IMG/VR virus record: IMGVR_UViG_3300017565_000020
Location: 6,998 to 70,997 of that record
DNA length: 64,000 nucleotides
Source: a virus
Taxonomy: Duplodnaviria; Caudoviricetes
Reading direction: 5' to 3' (one strand)
Under the pieces are notes generated by a model. That model was not told where the DNA came from and searched no databases. It was given only the letters and a program-made list of their open reading frames with translations. Made by a program: the position numbers and the translations under genes. Of the stretch, positions 2,203 to 40,366 are shown in pieces. Within the stretch, counting starts at the first letter, position 1; the number at the start of each line of letters is the position of its first letter.

Positions 2203-3151
2203 TTGGAAATAAGGTTTTTAATAAATGTTTACTATTGGCGTGTTTAGCCCAGCCTTTGTAGCTGTCTATACTTGCCCTTGGTTTTCGGGCTTTCACCGCC
2301 CGGGCAAAGTTTTTCTTGATAGATTTCCTGATCAGTACCCGGTTGTGGAAGTGCTTATATCCAACCACGTCAATACCTCTGTCTTCCACTTTAAATACCT
2401 GGTAATTACCTTTTACCAGTAAGTGGAGCTTATCGTATAAATAGGCTTGTATTTCTGCCCTTAAAGCATGCAAATAAGCTTTGCTGTTATGGAGAATTAC
2501 CAGGTCGTCTGCATATCTTACATAATACTTAACCCTTTTCACTTCCTTTAGCCAGTGGTCAAAGTAGCTGAGGTAAAAATTGGCGAGATATTGGCTCAGG
2601 TAGTTACCGATAGGCAATCCGGGGGCGCTGTCAATTATTTCGTCGAGCAGCCATAACAGATCCTTATCCTTTATTATTCGGCGTAATAATTGTTTTATAA
2701 TCGCATGGTCTACCGATGGGTAAAATTTCGTGATATCCAGTTTCAGGCAATACGTAGTTTCTGGTATATTTTTCAGGTATTTCCGAACCTTTTTGGATAA
2801 GGCATGTATGCCTCGTTTTTTAATACAGCTATAGGTATCGGCCGTAAATGTGGCTACAAATATTCGCTCCAGAATATTCATCACCGCATGGTGAAGAATA
2901 CGGTCCGGGAAGAAAGGGAGACGGTAGATTATGCGTTCTTTAGGTTCGTGGATTTTAAAAATTGTATATGGTGAGGTTTTATAGGTTTTATCCCTGAGCA
3001 TATTGTACAATGCCATCAGGTATTCGTCCGGATGCTGGCGAAACTCAATAACACCGTATTGCTTTGCCTTTCCGAGGGCCGCAATTTCTGCGGTCCTTTC
3101 AAGGTTATAGATGTTATAAACTTGTTCGTATAAATTATTTTTCCGTTTCAT
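2189..3151 (-). CDS. DGR-type reverse transcriptase
   Basis: RIIYRLPFFPDRILHHA, LKLDITKFYPS, GLPIGNYLSQYLAN and YADD motifs; 320 aa with no maturase or endonuclease domain; adjacent TR/VR repeats. Confidence 0.95.
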   Translation of the reverse strand: MKRKNNLYEQVYNIYNLERTAEIAALGKAKQYGVIEFRQHPDEYLMALYNMLRDKTYKTSPYTIFKIHEPKERIIYRLPFFPDRILHHAVMNILERIFVATFTADTYSCIKKRGIHALSKKVRKYLKNIPETTYCLKLDITKFYPSVDHAIIKQLLRRIIKDKDLLWLLDEIIDSAPGLPIGNYLSQYLANFYLSYFDHWLKEVKRVKYYVRYADDLVILHNSKAYLHALRAEIQAYLYDKLHLLVKGNYQVFKVEDRGIDVVGYKHFHNRVLIRKSIKKNFARAVKARKPRASIDSYKGWAKHANSKHLLKTLFPNESI

Positions 3152-3234
3152 GTACTTATAAAGCCTCTGCTTTAGCAGGTCTTCTTCTCACGATGTATCG
3201 TAATACCAAAGCCCTAAAAGCGCCATGTAATTTT

Positions 3235-3249
3235 TTGCCATGTTGGCAA
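3235..3249 (-). promoter_or_regulatory. Short hairpin in the TR-RT spacer (TTGCCA-3nt-TGGCAA)
   Basis: Perfect 6-bp inverted repeat between TR and the RT start; DGR spacer RNA is known to carry functional structure. Confidence 0.5.
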
Positions 3250-3279
3250 GGTCTGTACTGCCATTAGTTTTTAAAGCAT

Positions 3280-3352
3280 GGTGGGAGCTGACATTCGCAT
3301 TCGTATTGTCGTAGTTGTAGTCGTTGTACGCGAGACCGGACGGCGACGAAGC
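3280..3352 (-). repeat. DGR template repeat (TR), 73 bp
   Basis: Minus strand GCTTCGTCGCCGTCCGGTCTCGCG TAC AAC GAC TAC AAC TAC GAC AAT ACG AAT GCG AAT GTC AGC TCC CAC C; intergenic and rich in AAC/AAT codons. Confidence 0.96.
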
Positions 3353-3378
3353 TACAGCCCAAGCAGTACACCACCCTT

Positions 3379-3765
3379 TTATTTTGGAATCACAAGGATA
3401 TCCTTGTATTTTTCAAAGTGTTGCTTCACCACGTATTTTAATATCTCCAGCGTTGGAAAAACGCGGCGGGAGCCGACATGCGCAGTCGTATCGCCGAAGA
3501 GGTAGACGCTGCACGCGAGACCGGACGGCGACGAAGCAGACATATCCCACCAAGCATAGTATTTACGTTGGTTCCAGTCTGTCCAATCAATTTCCTTGTC
3601 TTCACCTTTCCACGCCGCTTCGGATATTACATCCAGCTCATAACCGGATATTACATTTTGTGCATGTTTCTCCGGTAAGCCGGTTACTACAGGTTTAATG
3701 GTTGGGTCATAGCCGAGGAACTTTGCTGCGGCTTCAAAACTTTCTAAATGCAGATACTTTTTCAT
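3379..3765 (-). CDS. DGR target protein 1 (128 aa)
   Basis: Contains VR1 encoding ASSPSGLACSVYLFGDTTAHVGSR, preceded by KYYAWW. Confidence 0.9.
   Translation of the reverse strand: MKKYLHLESFEAAAKFLGYDPTIKPVVTGLPEKHAQNVISGYELDVISEAAWKGEDKEIDWTDWNQRKYYAWWDMSASSPSGLACSVYLFGDTTAHVGSRRVFPTLEILKYVVKQHFEKYKDILVIPK
3465..3537 (-). repeat. DGR variable repeat VR1
   Basis: 73-bp match to TR with 12 mismatches, all opposite TR adenines. Confidence 0.96.
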
Positions 3766-3776
3766 TTTTGTGTTGG

Positions 3777-4274
3777 TTAATTATTGTAATAGATATAGGT
3801 TGACCAGTCGTCAATGGCTACTTCTGCAAAGTGTTTGGTCTGGTCTGCATCACAAACACAGAGGCGGGAGCCGACATCCGCATCCGTACCGCCGAAGCTG
3901 AAGACGTAGTACGCGAGACCGGACGGCGACGAAGTGCGGTTAAACCACGGATAGTACCAGTAATCTTCTTTGGTGAGCGCCTTACCGCCTCTTATAGCGT
4001 ATGCCCAAACTTCTAATGCTTTACCGGATTTTTCTCCTGGGCTGTCACGTTCTGTTCGCCAGTTAAACTGTTCTAATGTTTCGCCCTTAAAATCCAGCGC
4101 ATCCTGGAATGTCTTAATATCCTTATAATTAAAGGATGTTTTTTTAATAGCAGCTACCTGTTCTTTGGTTAGCTCAATTTCTACGGGCTTGCCGTTTACT
4201 TCGATAGTGGTTTTCATAACTCTTGTTGTTATTTGGTGGTTAAAATCCTTTCTCTGCTTTGGAACCTTTACCAT
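3777..4274 (-). CDS. DGR target protein 2 (about 159-165 aa)
   Basis: Contains VR2 encoding SSPSGLAYYVFSFGGTDADVGSR, preceded by WYYPWF; paralogous to target 1. Confidence 0.9.
   Translation of the reverse strand: MVKVPKQRKDFNHQITTRVMKTTIEVNGKPVEIELTKEQVAAIKKTSFNYKDIKTFQDALDFKGETLEQFNWRTERDSPGEKSGKALEVWAYAIRGGKALTKEDYWYYPWFNRTSSPSGLAYYVFSFGGTDADVGSRLCVCDADQTKHFAEVAIDDWSTYIYYNN
3863..3934 (-). repeat. DGR variable repeat VR2
   Basis: 72-bp match to TR with 12 mismatches, all opposite TR adenines. Confidence 0.96.
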
Positions 4275-12445: not shown

Positions 12446-12747
12446 GGCAACTTTATTTCAGTGTTTAAGATTGATTGTTTACTAACAACGTATCGTATTT
12501 CTTCGCCATAATACGGGTCATCAACAGGGATATATTTTTCTTTAATTTTTGCATTCTCCGCACACCGTTGCCTAACATCTTCGGCGACTTGTTGAGCGTA
12601 TATCCTTGCTACTTCATTAAGTACTTTTTCAAACCATTTTAAACCGGCATTACCTTCTCCATCTGCCATTGCCCATAATAAGCTCTCAAAGTCATCATGG
12701 CCGTACTCTTTCGCTAATTCGTCTTTTATTTCGTCTAAGGTTTTCAT
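12442..12747 (-). CDS. Hypothetical protein
   Basis: ORF in operon. Confidence 0.6.
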   Translation of the reverse strand: MKTLDEIKDELAKEYGHDDFESLLWAMADGEGNAGLKWFEKVLNEVARIYAQQVAEDVRQRCAENAKIKEKYIPVDDPYYGEEIRYVVSKQSILNTEIKLP

Positions 12748-12887: not shown

Positions 12888-13124
12888 TTACTTTGCCCAA
12901 CCAGCAACATTACACAATCGATATACTTTACAGGGGTAAGTGTCATGGATTTCAGCCGCCATAAAATCAGCTCCGCTTTCAAAAACATTCCCATTTTTAT
13001 CTACCCAAATCCATGTTTCACCGCCTCTGATTTTATCGGGTAAAATCTGTGGAACCCTGTTGACCCATTCCTGTTTACTTTTTAATTCAAAGAGAAATTC
13101 TCCTTTTACTTCAATTGTTTCCAT
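12888..13124 (-). CDS. Hypothetical protein
   Basis: ORF in operon. Confidence 0.55.
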   Translation of the reverse strand: METIEVKGEFLFELKSKQEWVNRVPQILPDKIRGGETWIWVDKNGNVFESGADFMAAEIHDTYPCKVYRLCNVAGWAK

Positions 13125-13143
13125 ATTATAATTTTTCCTTTTT

Positions 13144-13165
13144 ACAAAGCCGGGAGCGCTAACCC
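13144..13165. repeat. 22-bp direct repeat ACAAAGCCGGGAGCGCTAACCC, copy 1
   Basis: Exact second copy at 16698-16719. Confidence 0.85.
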
Positions 13166-13169
13166 TGCG

Positions 13170-13586
13170 TTATTTTCTCCCATAAACCAACAATCCTGAA
13201 ACACGCTTTTCACTATTTGTCTGACCTTTATACCCTGTTATTTTGCAGAAATCTTTATGCGTATAACTGCTATATCCTTTCGGCATCACAAGCTCAAAAC
13301 TTATCTTATTATCCGTCAAAAACTTCTCAATTTGGCGACCTATTTCGTTGTTGGCGCCGACCCGTTTAGCCATGCCGTTACCGCCTTTGTGCCATGTTTT
13401 TTTTACCTTATGCCCGGCTTCGAGTACTACGGTCAAGTCATAATTTTTGTGATACCCCAAAAGCTCGTTAAACAGGTCAAAAAGGCTGTATTGGTTTAAC
13501 ATAAGCTCTTTAAATTCCGGTAGCCATAGTGCGAAACCTGATTTGTCTACGTCCGGGTCAATGCCGATGAATAATTTCTCTTTCAT
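13170..13586 (-). CDS. RuvC-like Holliday junction resolvase
   Basis: FIGIDPDVDKSGFA, VVLEAG, NSEKRVSGLL. Confidence 0.75.
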   Translation of the reverse strand: MKEKLFIGIDPDVDKSGFALWLPEFKELMLNQYSLFDLFNELLGYHKNYDLTVVLEAGHKVKKTWHKGGNGMAKRVGANNEIGRQIEKFLTDNKISFELVMPKGYSSYTHKDFCKITGYKGQTNSEKRVSGLLVYGRK

Positions 13587-14419
13587 AACCTAATAGCGTT
13601 TAAAGGTGAAGGTATCCTGCTAATCAGGTTATGGCTTATATGCGTGTAAATGGACGTAGTTTTAACGCTATTGTGCCCTGCAAGTCGCTGTATCAGATTA
13701 ATGTCCGTTCCGGCCTCTAACATGTGCGTAAAGGCGCAATGGCGCATTAAATGTGTGTATACACGCTTATTTATGCCTGCTTTTTGAGCTAACTGTTTAA
13801 TGACCTGCCCAACGCTACGTTCTGAGTATTGAGGCTCATTATGCCAGCCGTTCAATACATATTCCCGGCTGTGGTAAGCGTGCCAGTATTTCTCCAGCAA
13901 AGGCACAATATCTGGCGTAAGCATCACATGCCTGTCTTTTTTGCCTTTGGCGGCTATAATGTTAATAATCATCCGGCTGCGGTCTATGTGCTGCCATTTA
14001 AGGTTTATAAGCTCCGAAACCCGCAATCCGGCAGAATACAATAAGGCCAGTATTACTTTATGCTTTAAGTTCTCGCACACGTTGAACATCGCTTGAATTT
14101 CCGCTTGCGATAGCACAATAGGCAACTTCTTGTCGCTTCTGGGATATTCAATGTACTTAAATTTTAACGGCTGTTTACCCGTTAACGAGTAGAATAGCTT
14201 AACAGCGGATATACGATGTTTACGGCCGTTAATGGATTTAGCTTGTAGTAACCATTCTTTAATCTGCCTTTCATTAATTTCTGATGGCTTTGTGGCTATT
14301 CCGTTAAAGTGGTTTAAAAAACAACGGACTTGCGATACATAATTACTTATAGTACGTTCTCCGTAGTTTTTTAACCGTAAATCTTCGGAATATAAATCCA
14401 GGTACTTTCCGATATTCAT
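13583..14419 (-). CDS. IntI-like tyrosine recombinase (integron-integrase-like, no obvious IntI-specific insertion)
   Basis: NYGERTISNY N-terminal SAM-like region; GLRVSE (R), AAKGKKDR (K), HLMRH, LAGH, TTSIYTH (Y); C-terminal IPSPL as in IntI. Confidence 0.9.
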   Translation of the reverse strand: MNIGKYLDLYSEDLRLKNYGERTISNYVSQVRCFLNHFNGIATKPSEINERQIKEWLLQAKSINGRKHRISAVKLFYSLTGKQPLKFKYIEYPRSDKKLPIVLSQAEIQAMFNVCENLKHKVILALLYSAGLRVSELINLKWQHIDRSRMIINIIAAKGKKDRHVMLTPDIVPLLEKYWHAYHSREYVLNGWHNEPQYSERSVGQVIKQLAQKAGINKRVYTHLMRHCAFTHMLEAGTDINLIQRLAGHNSVKTTSIYTHISHNLISRIPSPLNAIRL

Positions 14420-14439
14420 AACGTATTTTGTTAATTATT

Positions 14440-14481
14440 AGTTAGTTACAGGGGGGTGAATACATATATTAGTTGGCGGCA
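14440..14481 (+). other. attI-like site with core GTT at 14472-14474
   Basis: Lies between the integrase start and cassette 1; ...TACATATATTAGTTGGCGGCA with no long palindrome. Confidence 0.65.
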
Positions 14482-14484
14482 ATA

Positions 14485-15060
14485 CTACCTCCGCTTAATT
14501 TCAACGGTTATTATCGTGTCATTGTGACAAGCTCCATGACAGACAAGCATTATTTCTACTATCTCAAATCCACGCTTCTTGCCAATGCCTGTGCTATCCC
14601 AACAAAATGAAATAACAGTACCGCCAACTTTTACTATTCGCCTTATTTCATCTTTGCATTTTGCCCAATATTCAGCCCTACCAGCAGTTCCTTTTTGCTT
14701 TGGCGTGTATCGCCTCAAACATTGTTCGGTTGAATAAGGTGGGTCAAAAAAGCAGCCATCTAATGAATTATCAGGCAAAGATTTTAGGAACTCTAAAGCA
14801 TCCATTTGATGTTTTGCCCCACGTCCTTCAATGTCGTTTGTTATTTCAGCAGGTGAATTTTCGCCAGCAAAAGGGTCTGCCCACGTTCCAAAATGGTATT
14901 TAGAAATAAGTCCTGCAATTGGCTTTACTGTGAATGTCCAAATAGAAGGCATTGCCCAAACCCTACTTAATTCAACCGTACTGCCGCCAACACTGCATTG
15001 CTGCAATGCTGGCTGACGTACATCACTCATCGGTATATTTTCAAATAAACTGTTTTGCAT
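14485..15060 (-). CDS. Cassette 1: small amino-methyltransferase-like protein
   Basis: WADPFAG (motif I-like) and FFDPPYS (motif IV); start codon lies inside attC-like site 1. Confidence 0.78.
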   Translation of the reverse strand: MQNSLFENIPMSDVRQPALQQCSVGGSTVELSRVWAMPSIWTFTVKPIAGLISKYHFGTWADPFAGENSPAEITNDIEGRGAKHQMDALEFLKSLPDNSLDGCFFDPPYSTEQCLRRYTPKQKGTAGRAEYWAKCKDEIRRIVKVGGTVISFCWDSTGIGKKRGFEIVEIMLVCHGACHNDTIITVEIKRR

Positions 15061-15120
15061 AATTCAACTTTTTGTTTTTCAAATTCCAGCACTGACAGCA
15101 ATGCTTCAACGTTATGTGCC
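14982..15120 (+). other. attC-like site 1
   Basis: TGCCGCCAAC - GCATTGCTGCAATGCTGG ... CCAGCACTGACAGCAATGC - GTTATGTGCC. Confidence 0.85.
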
Positions 15121-15121
15121 A

Positions 15122-15367
15122 TTAAGCAGACGCCTCACGAATACCAACGACAACAGGGTTTTTAGGAGTTCCGTCCTCAAAATAGCCGTCGTGTTCTATT
15201 TCTGCAATCTTTCTATCAGTCCAATTTCCTTTGCAATAATTCCACAACTCATTAAACTTTTCTAATCCTAATCCGTTTTTTGCCCAAAAGATATTTTCGT
15301 TTTGCAAAGGCTCACAGGTAAATGACTGTGGACGGCTCAACCCTGTTAATTTGAAATCTGTTTTCAT
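15122..15367 (-). CDS. Cassette 2: hypothetical protein (81 aa from ATG 15367)
   Basis: ORF between att sites; C-terminal EIEHDGYFEDGTPKNPVVVGIRE recalls a ligase OB-like motif. Confidence 0.65.
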   Translation of the reverse strand: MKTDFKLTGLSRPQSFTCEPLQNENIFWAKNGLGLEKFNELWNYCKGNWTDRKIAEIEHDGYFEDGTPKNPVVVGIREASA

Positions 15368-15382
15368 CGTTCTAAATTTAAC

Positions 15383-15484
15383 GGCACATAACAAGGGTTT
15401 TGCGTAATAGCCCTATCAAGTGTCGTGGTTAATTTTAAGTTTATACTAAGGGCTACTACGCAAAGCCCCGATATGTTACAGGCA
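15383..15484 (+). other. attC-like site 2
   Basis: GGCACATAAC - GGGTTTTGCGTAATAGCCCT ... AGGGCTACTACGCAAAGCCC - GTTACAGGCA. Confidence 0.88.
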
Positions 15485-15487
15485 ATA

Positions 15488-16381
15488 CTACGACCACTCC
15501 GCAAAAGACAGAATGTGTGCTATAATATCAACTGTCCACGCATCGCCTATACAATCATACGCTTCATCGTAAGACAATGTTTTTGTGTAACCAATAGGTA
15601 GTGTTTGTAGTTTTTCAATTTCAGTTTGTGAAAGGTAGCGATACACACCATCTTTCAATAAATAGTTTTCGTTCCATTTTCGGTGTCCGTTTGCAGTTAA
15701 GCAACCGCTTTTAGGATATGGATTTACTCTTGTGTACCCATTTTCAACCGATTTTTTACCGCTTTCAGAAGTTAGCCATTTTACTCTACATTCGTCAGCT
15801 AAATCTCCAGAGTAATCAAAAACATCAGCAGTTGTAATTCCTTTGTCTTTCGGTTGCTTAATTCCGGGAATATTTGTCCAATAGTATCTCGGTCTATTCT
15901 GAGCAGAAACTAACTTACTATTTATTGAAATAGGTTTAACTCCTAATGTTTCTGTAATTATTTCGGTGGCTTTTTTGTTGCCGTGTGTGTTTTCAAGTAA
16001 AAAGTATTTTGGTTTTACTTCTTCAAGTAATCTAATATACTCCCAAAACAATTTACTTTCAGCGTGTTCAAGTCCTTCTTGGTTTTTATTCAATCTTGAA
16101 ATCCCTTTACAAGGAGAGCCACCTATCAATAAATCAATTTTTGGTAAGTCGCTACCTTTCACATTCAAAACACTACCTAATTGTATTGTGTTTGGGTAGT
16201 TGCTTTGTGTACATTTAATTGCGTGTGGTTTAATCTCACTTGCAAAATATTGTCTTACTTCATACCCAGCACGGTCTAAGGCAATCTGTCCGCAGGAAAT
16301 ACCATCAAATAAAGAAAGTACTGCCTGTAACACGGGTTTTGCGTCATTGGGGCTTTGGTTTTTCAAATAAAGTTCTGTCAT
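15488..16381 (-). CDS. Cassette 3: C5 cytosine DNA methyltransferase
   Basis: VLSLFDGISCG (I), GGSPCKG (IV), FLLENT (VI), QNRPRYYW (VIII), LQTLP and GDAW (IX/X); start codon lies inside attC-like site 3. Confidence 0.9.
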   Translation of the reverse strand: MTELYLKNQSPNDAKPVLQAVLSLFDGISCGQIALDRAGYEVRQYFASEIKPHAIKCTQSNYPNTIQLGSVLNVKGSDLPKIDLLIGGSPCKGISRLNKNQEGLEHAESKLFWEYIRLLEEVKPKYFLLENTHGNKKATEIITETLGVKPISINSKLVSAQNRPRYYWTNIPGIKQPKDKGITTADVFDYSGDLADECRVKWLTSESGKKSVENGYTRVNPYPKSGCLTANGHRKWNENYLLKDGVYRYLSQTEIEKLQTLPIGYTKTLSYDEAYDCIGDAWTVDIIAHILSFAEWS

Positions 16382-16459
16382 ATATTCAAATTTTGTTTTT
16401 CAAATGGGCTTTAGTGCTGGAAATCCCCAACGAACGCAAAGCCCGAAACCGTTGAGCGT
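16322..16459 (+). other. attC-like site 3
   Basis: TGCCTGTAAC - CGGGTTTTGCGTCATTGGGG ... CCCCAACGAACGCAAAGCCCG - GTTGAGCGT. Confidence 0.87.
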
Positions 16460-16673
16460 ATTGTCTCATAACATCTGACACCCTGGTTCTGGGGGCGCTT
16501 CCACCACCGCTAATTCCAGAATCTATAGGGGGATTTTTCAACCCTTTCTGTTTTGCAATGGAATCTTCTGTTAACTGCTTCTTTGGTTCTTTTTTTATCC
16601 GTTCTGAATACGGACTATTCCCACTTAACGCCATCATTGTGGCTAATTGTAACATTGCTAATTTTTTACTCAT
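16386..16673 (-). CDS. Hypothetical protein whose C-terminus reads through attC-like site 3
   Basis: ATG at 16673; the last ~25 codons are encoded by the att palindrome. Confidence 0.5.
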   Translation of the reverse strand: MSKKLAMLQLATMMALSGNSPYSERIKKEPKKQLTEDSIAKQKGLKNPPIDSGISGGGSAPRTRVSDVMRQYAQRFRALRSLGISSTKAHLKNKI

Positions 16674-16697
16674 ATTTTTAATTGCCTATAACCGTTC

Positions 16698-16723
16698 ACA
16701 AAGCCGGGAGCGCTAACCCGGCT
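16698..16723. repeat. 22-bp direct repeat copy 2, here forming a full hairpin AGCCGGG-8nt-CCCGGCT
   Basis: Sequence inspection. Confidence 0.8.
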
Positions 16724-16825
16724 GTATTTTACCTAAACCTAACGTATAAGAACCATTTTGCGCTTTTGGGGGTATCTCTTTACCTCTGGTGGTTATCCGA
16801 TAGTGTAATGCGTATTGTTTACGTG

Positions 16826-17245
16826 TCATACGGTCTCCTTTTTACGTTTAATAGTTCTGGGTTTCTTTTCTGCTGCACCCCGTAATAAATATTCAGGGCT
16901 TGTTTTCCATCCATAAGAATTAAGTACTGGAGAGATAATGGCAGCATAGTGTTTTGTCATGTTGAGCGTACCATCAGTGAGCCTTATTAGCGTACTGGCC
17001 TGAAGCTTAGTTTCCTTATGAAGTCGGCTAAATACAACACCTGGTTTACGATTCAGGAACTGGATAAAATCCAGGGAATTGCTAATGAATACCTTGTCTA
17101 ATATTATTCCGCGTTCGTTTAGCCTATCCAAAACTTCTTTTATTCGCGACTTGCTGCCATATCGTTCTATTGACGATGTCTTGCCATTGCTTCTGTAAAA
17201 GAAGTAGTAATTGCCCTTTCGTTCCTTTCTTCCCCGTGTTTCCAT
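16826..17245 (-). CDS. Hypothetical protein, possible HTH
   Basis: VFSRLHKETKLQASTLIRL segment; basic C-terminus. Confidence 0.5.
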   Translation of the reverse strand: METRGRKERKGNYYFFYRSNGKTSSIERYGSKSRIKEVLDRLNERGIILDKVFISNSLDFIQFLNRKPGVVFSRLHKETKLQASTLIRLTDGTLNMTKHYAAIISPVLNSYGWKTSPEYLLRGAAEKKPRTIKRKKETV

Positions 17246-17333
17246 TAGCTGAATATTAAAAACATGATAAACAGTATGATTTCTACCCGGTACTGGTATA
17301 CTGGATGAGATTTAATTTGCCGCCAATATTTGC

Positions 17334-18374
17334 TCATGATTCTTCATTGATAGTTACAGGCATAACCAGTATATTCTTGTTGAGTATTGCGGCCCTGGTT
17401 GGTGATCCTAATTCAATGGTTGCAGCGTATGAATTTGTAGTGCTCAGCGCTTTATCAAAAAATTTACCGTTAAACCCTATTTCAATTTCATAACCGTCAA
17501 TCTTGGCCAAATCAACCGTTCTTTTATAAGCTCGGCCATGATTAGAATTTTTAGCAGTTATCTGCAAAGTTCCGTTTGCTTTAAACTTTACCAGCTTTGT
17601 TATTGGATCAGCTACAAGTAATGCTTTTCTGATGGTGTCGTGAAGTTCATCTTTGCTCACCACAATAGAAGTAGTAGTTTCTGTTGGGATGACTTTTTGA
17701 AAATCTGGATAATTTTCATCAACACTGCGTGAAACTATTTTTACAATGCTGTTTTCAATAGTAATATATGCAGTTCCTACGCTAAGGCGGAGGGGTTCAA
17801 TATATCCAAACAATGAAATTAGGTGACAGGTTGATTTTGATAATAATACCGGTTTCTTTGGTTGGATGCCTGATTTTTTAAAGTATAATAAATGGGCATC
17901 TGTTGCAGCTATATATCCGTCTTTTAAAGCTATACAAGTCAGTGCCGGTCTCAGCTCATCATGCCCTGTAAACTTTACTGCCTCAGCGATATGATCAACG
18001 TCTTCTTTTGTAATAAATCCCTGTATTTCGCTGTTTTCTACGGGAGTTTTTGGAAACTCTCCCGCTTCTTCATACTCAAAAATCATTTTTTCTGAATATG
18101 AACAGAACTCAATGCTTCTTCCCTGGCTTATAGAAAATGTACTCATGTTGTCTATTACATTAAGCAGGGATTTTCCATCTATGCAGAACTGCAAGTCTTT
18201 GTTCAGGTTTAAACCTTTGATGGTGACGAAATTCTGCAAATCTGTTGCCATCAGCTCGCCATTTTGTATTAAAAAGCTATCTAAAATGGGTAAAACGCCG
18301 TTTTTTTTAATTGTCAGACGAGCAACCTTTTTGATGTAGTTCACCTGAAATGGAGTTAATGTTGTTTTTTTCAT
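17334..18374 (-). CDS. dnaN: DNA polymerase III beta sliding clamp-like protein
   Basis: LPILDSFL, MATDL, RPALTCI, AATDAHLL, ENYPDFQKVIP, IGFNGKF, LVMPV; likely ATG at 18374. Confidence 0.88.
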   Translation of the reverse strand: MKKTTLTPFQVNYIKKVARLTIKKNGVLPILDSFLIQNGELMATDLQNFVTIKGLNLNKDLQFCIDGKSLLNVIDNMSTFSISQGRSIEFCSYSEKMIFEYEEAGEFPKTPVENSEIQGFITKEDVDHIAEAVKFTGHDELRPALTCIALKDGYIAATDAHLLYFKKSGIQPKKPVLLSKSTCHLISLFGYIEPLRLSVGTAYITIENSIVKIVSRSVDENYPDFQKVIPTETTTSIVVSKDELHDTIRKALLVADPITKLVKFKANGTLQITAKNSNHGRAYKRTVDLAKIDGYEIEIGFNGKFFDKALSTTNSYAATIELGSPTRAAILNKNILVMPVTINEES

Positions 18375-18415
18375 ATATTTTTTATTTATAATTTCACTTA
18401 GTATGCACACATAAT

Positions 18416-18739
18416 TTAACAAATAAAAGCCTCTAATTGTATTGGGTTTGTAGTATGTTCCCGAATTACCAATTCTTTAAAACTGTCTGTTGATTTGGAA
18501 GCCAATACAATATTTAATTGCCCAAACTTTACAGATCCTCTGCTCTCCGTTTCATCCAGTAAGCAATTGGGTACCCTGTAGTAATTATCTTTTCGATATT
18601 CTTTACACCAGGTATCTAATTTATTGCAACTTAGATGGTGACAATAGCAGGTTTTGCCGTTTATTTGCAAAATCAGGTATTTCATTTGCTGAATTAAAAA
18701 ATAATTACTTGCGGCTATTCGGGTCGCCTGTACCAACAC
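18416..18739 (-). CDS. Hypothetical protein
   Basis: ORF in operon; start uncertain. Confidence 0.4.
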   Translation of the reverse strand: MLVQATRIAASNYFLIQQMKYLILQINGKTCYCHHLSCNKLDTWCKEYRKDNYYRVPNCLLDETESRGSVKFGQLNIVLASKSTDSFKELVIREHTTNPIQLEAFIC

Positions 18740-32210: not shown

Positions 32211-33518
32211 ATGAGTACAGTAGCAACAGATACTACCAAGGACGAACCGAAGGATATAGAAACAACCGGCGGAGGAACGCCACCTTCCGCAGAACCTGTT
32301 TCTACACCTGAAACTACAGCATCCCAATTGCCGCTAAATGACCCTATTAGCCGGGCTAAAAGGGTATTAGGGGTAATCAATGATACCAACCAAGATGGAA
32401 ACCAGGAAACCAAGCAGGATTCGAAAAAGGATGCGCCGGGCGCAGTAAAAAATCCAAAGGATAATGCTTCTGATCCGGGTAAACAGCCGGGAACTGATAA
32501 AACAGATCCGCAGCCTGCATTTAATGTATTACAGTGGTTGAAAGAAACCCATAACATTGAATTAACAAGTGAGGATGATTTTAAGAAACGGCTGTCCGCA
32601 TTTGACGAATTAAAAACCATTACTGAACAGCGAAACCAGTTTGAGGCTAAACTCAAAGAAACTGCCGAGCAGTTGGAGAAGTCTAAAATTGAAGACCCGT
32701 ACGTACTTAAATTACATGATTTAAGGAAGAACGGCGCCACAACTGAACAGCTCAGGGCTTTTAACTTCGTGAATGAACTTGGCGATATCAGCACACTGGG
32801 AGATGCAGACAAAATTAAACTGCAATTAACCCTTGAAAAGGGATACACCGAAAAACAGGCTGATGCTTATATCCGTCGTTATTTTAACCTGGAAGCACCT
32901 GATGCCAACAACTTTGAAGCACCTGAAGATTTCGATGCAGCCATGGATGAATTCCTGCTGGCGGAAGCTGAGGTGAAGGACAAGGTCAGGTCGGCAGAAA
33001 AGTTTCTGAACGGTTATATTGCCTCCGCAAACGATCCGCTTGCCGGTAAAAAACAGGAACAGCTTGACCAGCAAAAGGCGCATGAAGCCTATATAAAACA
33101 GGTTGAGGCGCTGGCTCCGAAAATTGCTGAACAGTTTTCAACGTTAACGGTAAACCTGAACCCGGCAGCGAAAGAGGGAGAGGATGCCAGGGCATTTGAT
33201 TTCGGTATTGCAGACGACTTCAAAAAGGAGATACCTAATCTCCTGGTTGAATATTATAAAAATACGAATACCAAACTCGACGAGGATGGTATTAAGTCGG
33301 GGTTGACGTACGTTCAAGCCATGGCTAAATCTTATCAATACGATCGTGATGTTGCAGCGGCTTATGCACACGGAGCTTCTACCAGAGAGGCTGAATTGCG
33401 GGCTGAATATGACCGTAACGGTTCATTTGTACGTTCAACAACACAACCATCTGACCGCCAGGAAAGCGCCTTTGAAACATGGAGGCGAAAGAAATTAACG
33501 GGACAGGGTGCGTCTTAA
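32211..33518 (+). CDS. Putative scaffolding protein
   Basis: Acidic and coiled-coil; directly upstream of the capsid gene. Confidence 0.6.
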   Translation: MSTVATDTTKDEPKDIETTGGGTPPSAEPVSTPETTASQLPLNDPISRAKRVLGVINDTNQDGNQETKQDSKKDAPGAVKNPKDNASDPGKQPGTDKTDPQPAFNVLQWLKETHNIELTSEDDFKKRLSAFDELKTITEQRNQFEAKLKETAEQLEKSKIEDPYVLKLHDLRKNGATTEQLRAFNFVNELGDISTLGDADKIKLQLTLEKGYTEKQADAYIRRYFNLEAPDANNFEAPEDFDAAMDEFLLAEAEVKDKVRSAEKFLNGYIASANDPLAGKKQEQLDQQKAHEAYIKQVEALAPKIAEQFSTLTVNLNPAAKEGEDARAFDFGIADDFKKEIPNLLVEYYKNTNTKLDEDGIKSGLTYVQAMAKSYQYDRDVAAAYAHGASTREAELRAEYDRNGSFVRSTTQPSDRQESAFETWRRKKLTGQGAS

Positions 33519-38459: not shown

Positions 38460-40366
38460 TGGTATTACGAGGAATAGGATATATTGACACTAAAGACGTT
38501 TCGAGCCTGATAACTCCCGAGTTATTTGTGGGTGAGGACTACGACCGGGTAGTGCTTACGTCTGTTATCGACTTGTCGTCTACTAATATGCATACGGTAT
38601 ACCATGTTCCGAGCGGCAGGTATTTATTTTCATCGAATAACAAATCCGTAAATCCATTCAAGGCACTTGGAAACAACCAGTTTGAATTTCAAATACCCAA
38701 GCGTTATGCCGGAATTTCTACCGGAGATCAGATATGGGTGCGGATAAAAGTAACTTCCAAACAGGAGTATGAATGGCTGCTGGAGCGAATACGCATTGCA
38801 TTAATTACTATTGGTGCACCCGGAAGTCCGCTGGGATTGCTTATTACGAATACCGTTTTAAATCCAGACAGTTCCTTAACTTTCACCTATTCCGACAGTT
38901 CGACCTTTACTACGATACCACTGAAAGGCGCTACCGGTTCACAAGGGCCAAAAGGCGACCAGGGAATACAAGGCCCGCAGGGAGAAATTGGTGAAAAAGG
39001 AGACAAAGGCGATAAAGGAGACAAGGGTGACACCGGCAGCCAGGGGACACAAGGACCGGCAGGTCCGCAAGGCATACCCGGCCCAACAGGAGCAACCGGA
39101 CCCGCAGGTCCGCAGGGTCCAACAGGACCGTCTGGTCCGCAGGGCGTACAGGGGCCCGCAGGTCCGGCAGGACCACAGGGAGTGCAAGGGCCTAAAGGAG
39201 ATAAAGGCGACGCCGGAGATAAAGGACCTGAGGGACCTATAGGCCCGGCAGGTCCTCCGGGATTAAAAGGACAGCAGGGGGATAAAGGAGATACCGGTGC
39301 ACAGGGTCCTGCCGGACCGATGGGGCCACAGGGAGAAAAAGGGGATAACGGCGGTATCGAGTTTTATAACAGTACATCGGAGCCCACACCAGAAGACGGG
39401 GATGACGATGATATGTGGCTTAAAACATCGGAAACCGAAGCGGTGCTCTACAAAAAAGTGGAAGGCGAATGGCAAACTGTTTATACATTTTCAAACAATC
39501 CCGGAACGCCGGCCGATCATATTTCTACCGAGAGCATTGGCAGCATACATCCCGGCGATACCTACACTGTAGGAACCGTAGAAGCAAATTCGGCTACCCT
39601 TATAGCCATGCTAACAAATACGTATACCCCCACCTTCGTACTCCCCACGTTCAGCCTGAGCCAAAATGCCGGCAGCTTGCGTGAAATAGGGCAGCGTGTT
39701 GATGTTGGATTAACGTTCAACTTTAACCGGGGGCAGATAAAAGGCGCTTTAGTAGACGGAATATGGAACCCGAACGCGGTACAGGATTCACGGGCAGGGG
39801 AGGCGACTGATTATACCTTTATCGGACTTGGCGAAGAAGGGGCAGACGTTGTGCAACCCGGAAATACCTTTACCGTTGAGGATTATGAGTGCGTTCAGGG
39901 GCTGAATACATTTACTGCAAAGGTGAGCTATGATGAAGGTCCACAACCTAAGAACAGCGAGAACGAGGATTTCGACAGTCCATACCCGGACGGGACTTCT
40001 GCTAACCAGTCGGCCAGCTTTGAGGGAGTTTACCCCTTATTTGCAGCTACTTCTGATATTGAAACCGCTACCAAACAGGCTTTGGTGAGCATGATTACTG
40101 GGAATAACATCCAGTTTAACCTGGTAGCTGAAACCGGGGGCAATAAACAGTTTTTTGATGTGCCTGACGCGTGGTTGGAGGAAAGGGAATTGACCAGTAT
40201 TCAATACTTCAACCCGGTATCCGGGCAATGGGACACTACCAACCGTTTAAGCGATTTTACACCAAGCAGTGTAACTCAAACCATACAAGGAAATTTAGTT
40301 GACTATACCCGGAATACTTATAACGGCATAGACAGAGGTTCGGTACTTATCAGATTAATATTCTAA
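38459..40366 (+). CDS. Collagen-repeat fibre protein
   Basis: About 47 G-X-Y triplets at about 38930-39350. Confidence 0.85.

Follow-up and report, generated by a model that had tools for sequence, protein, structure and literature searches.

A probable integron-like gene-capture platform with a compact Xer/IntI-type recombinase and mirror-image cassettes in phages

The DNA analysed here, referred to as the window, is a stretch of 64,000 nt comprising bases 6998-70997 of a phage record in IMG/VR (IMGVR_UViG_3300017565_000020). The phage originates from a soil sample, and its 70,997-bp record is a complete genome with direct terminal repeats. All genes between 11 and 18.5 kb of the window lie on the minus strand, including one for a tyrosine recombinase and, upstream of it, a row of three open reading frames (ORFs), each accompanied by a long imperfect palindrome. 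An earlier note on this DNA had proposed that the row is an integron-like cassette array with an IntI-like recombinase, an attI-like site and three attC-like sites. The features of the locus are given below, first the genes in their order of transcription and then the sites and cassettes as read here; the site scanner and the chain-walk from which some values derive are described further on.

17334-18422, minus strand: DNA polymerase III beta-like clamp, first in transcription order, with two small ORFs next
15488-16381, minus strand: C5-cytosine methyltransferase ORF (Pfam DNA_methylase, 2.7e-34)
15122-15367, minus strand: 81-aa ORF, after the C5 methyltransferase in transcription order
14485-15060, minus strand: N6-adenine methyltransferase ORF (phrog_11619 DNA methyltransferase, 8.9e-39, homology from residue 31)
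13583-14419, minus strand: tyrosine recombinase of 278 aa, Xer/IntI-like (Pfam Phage_integrase, 2.6e-34)
Gene after the recombinase in transcription order, minus strand: Holliday-junction resolvase, from profile matches
14420-14474: attI-like site, with TACATATA at 14461-14468 (plus strand), then TTA, then the crossover GTT at 14472-14474
14472-15113, minus strand: cassette 1, adjoining attI, with the N6-adenine methyltransferase ORF and site 1; chain-walk unit of 639 nt, 10/10 end match
14989-15113, minus strand: site 1 (attC-like), AAC to GTT; stem of about 14995-15012 with 15086-15104, bulged T, scanner score 18
15111-15477, minus strand: cassette 2, with the 81-aa ORF and site 2; unit of 364 nt, 10/10 end match
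15390-15477, minus strand: site 2 (attC-like), short-loop class; 20-bp stem, fold z = -3.2 on the minus strand, scanner score 19
15475-16453, minus strand: cassette 3, with the C5-cytosine methyltransferase ORF and site 3
16329-16453, minus strand: site 3 (attC-like), distal end of the array; folds, scanner score 22

The three cassette ORFs and the recombinase gene share one strand, and each cassette is bounded by its own perfect 10-bp inverted pair, read directly from the sequence and recovered by repeat search: GTTGGCGGCA (14472-14481) and TGCCGCCAAC (14982-14991) for cassette 1, GTTATGTGCC (15111-15120) and GGCACATAAC (15383-15392) for cassette 2, and GTTACAGGCA (15475-15484) and TGCCTGTAAC (16322-16331) for cassette 3. 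All three pairs reach 14-16 nt if one mismatch is allowed. The outer 7-10 nt of each palindrome pair with the neighbouring palindrome across the gene, not with the opposite end of their own. The left AAC-to-stem spacer on the plus strand measures 2-3 nt, the right one 6 nt; each site folds into a stem of about 20 bp, and in the minus-strand folds a T bulges out of the 5' arm of sites 1 and 3. The palindromes, the three differing pairs, the AAC...GTT frames, the unequal spacers and the extra T in sites 1 and 3 had all been claimed in the earlier note, and every coordinate and sequence proved to be correct. A scan of the whole window scores the three sites at 18-22 and everything else at 15 or below. 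The three-site observation is exact and far beyond chance.

The earlier note had named action as terminators only as an outcome that would count against it, but the three sites are not terminator-like; sigma-70-like motifs were not above chance either, and a search of Rfam over window positions 13000-17500 (E <= 1) returned no family. The outer 7 nt of site 3 (TACGCTC, minus strand) have no inverted partner further upstream, and no plus-strand match to TACGCTCAAC lies nearby. Exact minus-strand copies of TACGCTCAAC occur at 12591-12600, at 16451-16460 (the outer box of site 3) and at 16961-16970. The extra copies are direct and offer no inverted partner by which the array could be extended; both fall inside ORFs, one as a Tyr-Ala-Gln codon run, and they are probably coincidental. 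Just upstream of the array, between ORFs of 139 and 95 aa, a GC-rich hairpin with a T-rich tail (16702-16723) looks terminator-like on the plus strand. The 95-aa ORF (16386-16673) runs into site 3 and has its stop within the loop of that site.

Sites of this kind were surveyed in 83 related loci, three obtained by exact-protein look-up and 80 from IMG/VR, all oriented with the recombinase on the plus strand (equivalent to the minus strand of the window). The scanner pattern consisted of AAC, a spacer of 5-7 nt, a stem, a loop, the returning stem, a spacer of 1-4 nt and GTT, and the flanks were left unused. Upstream of the recombinase 157 sites were found in 373 kb, all in the same orientation, while 547 kb downstream yielded 5 plus 1 reversed. 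The 132 unique sites diverge widely in sequence and have a common layout: Y stands before AAC in 127 and G after it in 128, T stands before GTT in 128 and R after it in 129, the 5' spacer is 5 nt in 114, and the 3' spacer is 1-3 nt in 127. Site lengths peak at 120-129 nt, with 77 sites, and again at 80-89 nt, with 20. Thus, the sites possess the attC-type cores RYYYAAC and GTTRRRY together with variable sequence and conserved structure.

Paired cells make up 92.4% of the basal helix (shuffles: 70.2%), where many compensatory changes occur and covariation scores 0.52, compared with 0.14 for shuffles and 0.05-0.12 for slid partners. This scoring covered the outer box (R box) and the basal helix only, because a MAFFT alignment of whole sites left the distal stems unaligned. 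The gene-sense strand gives the better fold in 108 of the 132 sites. Bulges are placed in the 5' arm in 39 sites and in the 3' arm in 15, and 78 need none; this departs from the canonical pattern of extrahelical T and G on the R''/L'' arm of the bottom strand, although one strand is marked by an asymmetry. A C-A mismatch at stem position 4-5 is present in 43. The spacer asymmetry, the C-A mismatch and the 5'-arm bulges are put forward as candidate strand markers. Promoter-like and terminator-like motifs at the sites show no excess over chance.

Because the scanner did not use the flanks, the complementarity of cassette ends provides a test independent of it. In 38 of 98 adjacent pairs, the 7 nt following the GTT of one site and those preceding the AAC of the next match perfectly as reverse complements, and a further 18 pairs match at 6 of 7 positions; the ends are complementary within one site in none of 155 cases and between non-adjacent sites in 2 of 149. 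A chain-walk back from the recombinase and attI tiles 123 contiguous units with end matches of 9-10 out of 10. The ends are complementary over 7-11 nt beyond the AAC/GTT triplet, and the crossover is placed within these common 3 nt. Such ends meet only in a closed circle, hence they constitute the classical signature of integron cassettes. Two loci (L082, 7853-7949; L084, 3577-3673) have in common a 94-nt unit with complementary ends and no room for a gene, an 'empty' cassette with little beyond the site.

The array ends at a conserved position next to the recombinase gene. In 73 of 84 loci (63 unique sequences) the motif Y-AAC-N3(4)-TATATGTA precedes the ATG by 50-54 or 68 nt, which bears out the attI-like site of the earlier note; in the window the crossover triplet, AAC when read on the minus strand, is 53 nt away from the start codon of the recombinase. 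In these 73 loci the terminal unit of the chain-walk always closes at AAC followed by N3(4)-TATATGTA, and otherwise identical loci start to diverge exactly at the attI AAC. The recombinase is transcribed away from attI, and cassettes join there. In eleven IMG/VR contigs the sequence starts only 30-280 nt ahead of the recombinase gene, either right at attI or a little past it, and these look like assembly breaks where arrays vary within a sample.

Several comparisons between phages indicate how cassettes have moved. Cassette 3 of the window and the attI-proximal cassette of a 63-kb contig (L075) are 99.4% identical over 984 nt; the recombinases of the two are 59% identical, and the homology is bounded by AAC on both sides, with unrelated flanks. 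One cassette is thus third from attI in the window phage and first in L075, and it follows from this comparison that the unit is a site and then its gene. A cassette frame on the complementary strand was rejected: it leaves the last cassette without a site and places the methyltransferase start codons in the neighbouring cassette, and the L075 comparison decides the matter. Four loci from four samples (L047, L048, L049 and L050) are 99.9-100% identical over 900 nt of attI and recombinase and possess four unrelated first cassettes, diverging exactly at the AAC. The backbones of L049 and L048 are 99.985% identical over 6856 nt from the attI AAC, with a conserved segment also beyond the array, and their arrays, of 2.65 and 1.7 kb, are otherwise different. 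Moreover, L049 and L051 have four units in common (98.8-100% identity) in a different order. Set side by side, these genomes show that cassettes are discrete units bounded by the AAC/GTT triplet, which have been exchanged between distant phages, inserted at attI and reordered by crossover inside that triplet. Differing cassettes beside the same integrase in related phages, which the earlier note had suggested looking for, are hence found repeatedly and strongly favour it. Its description of the system as active or recently active agrees with the near-identical cassettes in different contexts, and these suggest that the system may be active now.

About 28% of the sampled words of window positions 13400-16700, a share of the size of cassette 3, are found in wastewater, sludge, aquatic and marine sequencing runs from at least 12 studies, where the sequence of cassette 3 stands on its own. 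In two such runs that we examined, the contigs cover the sites and cassette 3 only, ending where the junctions had been predicted, at 15475/15479 and 16453. As these contigs are assembled, they show that the cassette is present in other contexts, not that it has been excised. No weight was given to uncovered stretches in four runs (X3, X4, X7 and X17), to small word shares elsewhere or to joints with sides of 22-24 nt. An 874-nt contig from activated sludge (run X7, record 25, depth 50) contains window positions 14978-15105, comprising site 1 and a few nt past its end, with 4 differences; the remainder of the contig is unlike the window, so the same site 1 heads a different gene there. Run X4, a soil sample with the phage at >=99%, has one contig that differs to the left of the site 1 AAC (window 14986), and this single contig hints at an alternative neighbouring cassette in a close relative. 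The C5 methyltransferase gene of cassette 3 is also 76% identical in nucleotides to a gene (3001-3819) of a 635-kb uncultured phage (LR745206.1). This homologue has its own N-terminus and no flanking site, and the homology stops at GTAC just before the cassette-end motif of the window.

The recombinase belongs to a family of more than 4000 homologues, the top 120 of which are all 277-279 aa long and 73-84% identical. It has the full R-K-H-R-H-Y set of catalytic residues (R133, K158, H223, R226, H249 and Y258), invariant across 25 homologues and also placed by alignment to 2A3V and 4A8E. Among NCBIfam models the best match is XerA_Arch (202 bits, cut-off 220), followed by the integron integrase TIGR02249 (162 bits, cut-off 265), XerD (160 bits, cut-off 330) and XerC (159 bits, cut-off 335), so that the cut-offs of the IntI model and the Xer equivalogs alike are missed; the best matches in the PDB by sequence are VchIntIA and archaeal XerA, tied. 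The enzyme is thus related to IntI as the earlier note had it, but by score it is equally Xer/XerA-like and stays under every curated cut-off. TIGR02249 matches in two stretches, model positions 3-178 and 239-314, with 179-238 missing, and residues 178-200 align to VchIntIA 180-244, giving 22 residues where IntI has 64. The additional domain specific to IntI, about 40-60 aa between patches II and III, is therefore absent, in line with the remark in the earlier note that the obvious IntI-specific insertion is lacking.

Among about 185,000 species genomes, homologues of the recombinase were found on 12 contigs of 2-81 kb. All of these contigs belong to metagenome-assembled genomes (MAGs), most of them in Bacteroidota bins, and isolate genomes yielded none. 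GenBank phages have no recombinase of more than 36% identity to the window enzyme. Scanning viral contigs with the recombinase as a single protein gave no match, but an alignment-based scan did find relatives. Two contigs (L095 and L097) with homologous recombinases, 54-62% identical, are binned as Saccharimonadales and Woesebacteria (candidate phyla radiation), reflecting either mis-binned phage DNA or a broader host range.

Cassette genes nearly all run in the direction of the recombinase: of 105 unique units, 101 have their longest ORF in that direction and 2 have it antisense. Of these 101 ORFs, 44 have their start codon within the site. The stop codon overlaps the TAAC core in 20 units, ending 1 nt before the AAC end, and in 25 others, the two methyltransferases of the window among them, it ends 13 nt before it. 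In the window the ORFs of cassettes 1 and 3 start in hairpin loops that share leader sequence (the site 1 loop contains the ATG at 15060), and the methyltransferase domains begin at ORF residue 21 in the C5 enzyme and residue 31 in the N6 enzyme. The integron arrangement, in which a usually promoterless ORF comes before attC and is read from a Pc promoter at the integrase end, is not found here, as the site precedes the gene. The array, the ends, attI and the exchange thus uphold the integron cassettes of the earlier note, with the reservation that the genes are read toward the integrase and each site lies upstream of its gene, as in a mirror image. Site polarity relative to the integrase and attI is the same as in integrons, and it is the genes that are inverted inside the cassettes: the plus strand of the window corresponds to the 'top' strand, on which G|TT closes each site at its 3' end, and the better-folding minus strand to the 'bottom' strand.

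Nineteen of the 101 cassette ORFs encode DNA methyltransferases by Pfam match (N6_N4 methylase 9, C5 methylase 6, Dam 3 and D12 methylase 1). Further matches are to PAPS-reductase-like proteins (4), a TET-associated glycosyltransferase (TAGT), a radical SAM protein and Lar restriction alleviation (1 each), and a Gad2 family match is on record for one cassette in another locus (L004). The majority of the remaining cassette ORFs have no recognised function. The 81-aa protein of cassette 2 has no Pfam, PHROG or NCBIfam match, and in the Atlas it falls in viral hypothetical clusters only, with a weak share of DNA_ligase_OB_2. One of the 101 ORFs matches Pfam Phage_integrase (9.8e-38), either a second recombinase in the array or a chain-walk past the array boundary. 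Judging from these matches, the cargo consists mainly of orphan DNA methyltransferases and other genes for DNA modification and anti-restriction. The two methyltransferases of the window probably guard the phage against host restriction enzymes, and the benefit of the arrangement is likely to be a rapid swapping of counter-defence genes between phages.

Taken together, the locus is very probably a phage-borne, integron-like platform for gene capture, consisting of a compact Xer/IntI-type recombinase, a conserved attI and a row of cassettes upstream. Several traits are shared with classical integrons such as those of class 1 and the Vibrio cholerae chromosome: the recombinase gene abuts the primary site and points away from it, the array is made of single-gene cassettes, the imperfect palindromes have YAAC...GTTR cores with the crossover at G|TT / AA|C, cassette ends are complementary, cassettes are inserted at attI and reordered, and the sites keep their structure while their sequence varies, with one strand folding better. 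Others are distinct: the phage enzyme lacks the IntI insertion and scores under the IntI model cut-off, the site lies 5' of the gene with the genes pointing toward the integrase and no Pc-type arrangement, the spacers are asymmetric (5 versus 1-3 nt) and do not follow the canonical G/T extrahelical pattern, attI is marked by a motif of its own, TATATGTA, and the platform is found in apparently lytic phage genomes.

A cassette in this platform is composed of one folded recombination site followed by its gene, with the site on the gene-sense strand taking the form 5'-YAAC-G-N4-stem-loop-stem-N0-2-T-GTTR-3', and the neighbouring recombinase presumably catalyses the exchange. By analogy with integron biology, a cassette would be released in circular form, with its two ends paired in an R box of 10-14 bp that closes the hairpin site. 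The recombinase may then bind the folded strand, cut at AA|C and swap one strand with attI or another site; the folded substrate would be the gene-sense strand, equivalent to the integron 'bottom' strand. Replication would resolve the product, and phage DNA synthesis may supply the single strands. Expression would require no promoter at attI, the genes being read toward the integrase from phage promoters further upstream, and many start codons are located in the site loops.

Some observations weigh against this interpretation. Neither an excised circle nor a junction read nor enzyme activity has been observed, the material examined being assembled contigs. The link between enzyme and sites is one of association, because the isolated phage P12002L has such sites and no recombinase. 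An IntI segment of roughly 40-60 aa contacts extrahelical bases in VchIntIA, and since the phage enzyme is without it, recognition of a folded strand is a proposal. The outer R box pairs over only 5 bp within the array. The scanner itself required pairing and accepted G-T, which makes the figures for covariation and strand asymmetry partly circular. Finally, the hairpins may also, or instead, act at the RNA level: the strand with the better fold is that of the mRNA, and sites contain the start codons of 44 of the 101 ORFs.

An exchange of modules between double strands, catalysed at duplex cores by the phage enzyme or by host XerC/XerD as in Xer/dif systems, with incidental or regulatory hairpins, is unlikely. 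In its favour, the IntI insertion is absent from the enzyme, which is collinear with XerA and, in architecture and length, of the plain Xer type known from XerC/D and archaeal XerA; in the pdif modules of Acinetobacter plasmids, too, genes lie between inverted recombinase-binding arms. However, both flanks of the triplet vary by cassette, on one side the 7 nt that lead up to AAC and on the other the spacer and stem, conserved duplex binding arms occur only in attI, and the sites are hairpins of 60-230 nt and include no 28-bp dif-like duplex unit. Pairing is kept through compensatory changes, the complementarity of the ends is useful only in a folded circle, and the protein is below the cut-offs of all Xer equivalogs. 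Xer enzymes do provide a precedent for action on a folded single-stranded phage site (XerCD on CTX phage DNA) and for the movement of gene modules.

It is very improbable that the sites are captured pieces of bacterial integrons, namely clusters of attC sites without integrase (CALINs), moved in trans by a bacterial IntI, and that the neighbouring recombinase is an unrelated phage integrase. Integrase-less attC clusters in virulent phages, often with methyltransferase cargo, have been published (Qi et al. 2023, PMC9892861); in that study IntI1 recombined 5 of 6 tested sites, one of them from Polaribacter phage P12002L, the sites of which were called attC by IntegronFinder, HattCI and Infernal. 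The cores found here fit YAAC/GTTR as well, and in our scan of P12002L the same site type turns up next to methyltransferases, on the gene-sense strand, in a genome that has no integrase gene, so that IntI1 does recombine a site of this type. The phage-borne sites of both studies flank methyltransferase genes. Opposed to this explanation are the occurrence of nearly all sites upstream of this one recombinase family in one orientation, the attI at a fixed distance from the start codon in 73 of 84 loci with insertion exactly there, an ORF polarity opposite to that of bacterial cassettes in 101 of 103 units, and the presence of the recombinase in only 12 MAG contigs among the species genomes. The published account (PMC9892861) mentions no phage recombinase, no Xer enzyme and no attI, reads the sites as fragments of bacterial integrons and shows no comparative turnover of cassettes, whereas here a complete platform with a dedicated non-IntI enzyme is described. 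In P12002L, an isolated lytic phage, the sites lie at 14503-14624 (plus strand) and at 32224-32280, 38880-38935 and 39516-39709 (minus strand), with one site on the opposite strand in the structural-gene region.

Promoter- or terminator-bearing stem-loops (PeSLs) as in T4-like phages, with genes shuffled by homologous recombination and no dedicated recombinase, are a still more remote explanation. PeSLs flank small, mobile accessory genes in the hyperplastic regions of phage genomes, where they are shuffled between relatives (PMC2839356, PMC4122927), and in the window the loops of sites 1 and 3 hold start codons and a shared leader. Yet PeSLs, the other phage precedent for mobile genes between stem-loops, are unlike the present sites in all defining features: they are regulatory motifs of conserved sequence, exchanged by what is thought to be homologous recombination, and have no recombinase, AAC/GTT core or end pairs (PMC2839356, PMC4122927). 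The stems found here are too divergent for homologous recombination, the breakpoints fall at the 3-nt core outside the repeats, promoter- and terminator-like motifs are at chance level, and homologous exchange would not give complementary ends specific to each cassette. The least probable explanation is an ordinary lysogeny module, in which the recombinase integrates the phage via an attP beside its own gene, as in temperate phages where int adjoins its site, and the hairpins regulate the early operon as RNA on the better-folding transcript strand; the family is found in MAG contigs of 2-81 kb and not in isolate genomes, the genome is complete with direct terminal repeats, and the exact boundaries, the end complementarity and the array variation on identical backbones are left unexplained.

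The integron-like platform is thus the interpretation that we retain. A full-text search of the literature found no description of the complete platform; the statement in the earlier note that no such system had been characterised in a phage therefore holds for the platform as a whole but not for attC clusters without an integrase, which are already on record (PMC9892861). What is new here, and supported by the genomic comparisons, is an integron-like platform in phages with a non-IntI recombinase and mirror-image cassettes.

IntI with its special domain is taken to define integrons, which are viewed as devices of bacteria. That the same cassette logic operates in lytic phage genomes, on a plain Xer-type enzyme and with gene polarity inverted, calls into question which features of the protein are needed for recombination of folded DNA, and if the proposed mechanism is true, an enzyme without the domain thought essential for folded attC would read folded sites. 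The platform also explains the orphan attC clusters earlier reported in phages, and it provides a concrete means by which phages can turn over anti-restriction and anti-defence genes rapidly. The combination of the recombinase family, an attI with TATATGTA and hairpin sites offers a sequence handle for finding new counter-defence genes in viromes, and the enzyme, being compact and having small sites, could be of use as a tool for recombination.

We are inclined, with some reserve, to a broader view in which Bacteroidota phages, and some others, own a 'mirror' integron lineage. A minimal Xer-like enzyme would capture circular cassettes as folded single strands during lytic replication, and co-infecting phages would trade a global pool of counter-defence genes, including methyltransferases, Gad2, Lar and DNA hypermodification enzymes. 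If this is true, mirror integrons would be the viral counterpart of the defence 'biobanks' of bacterial integrons.

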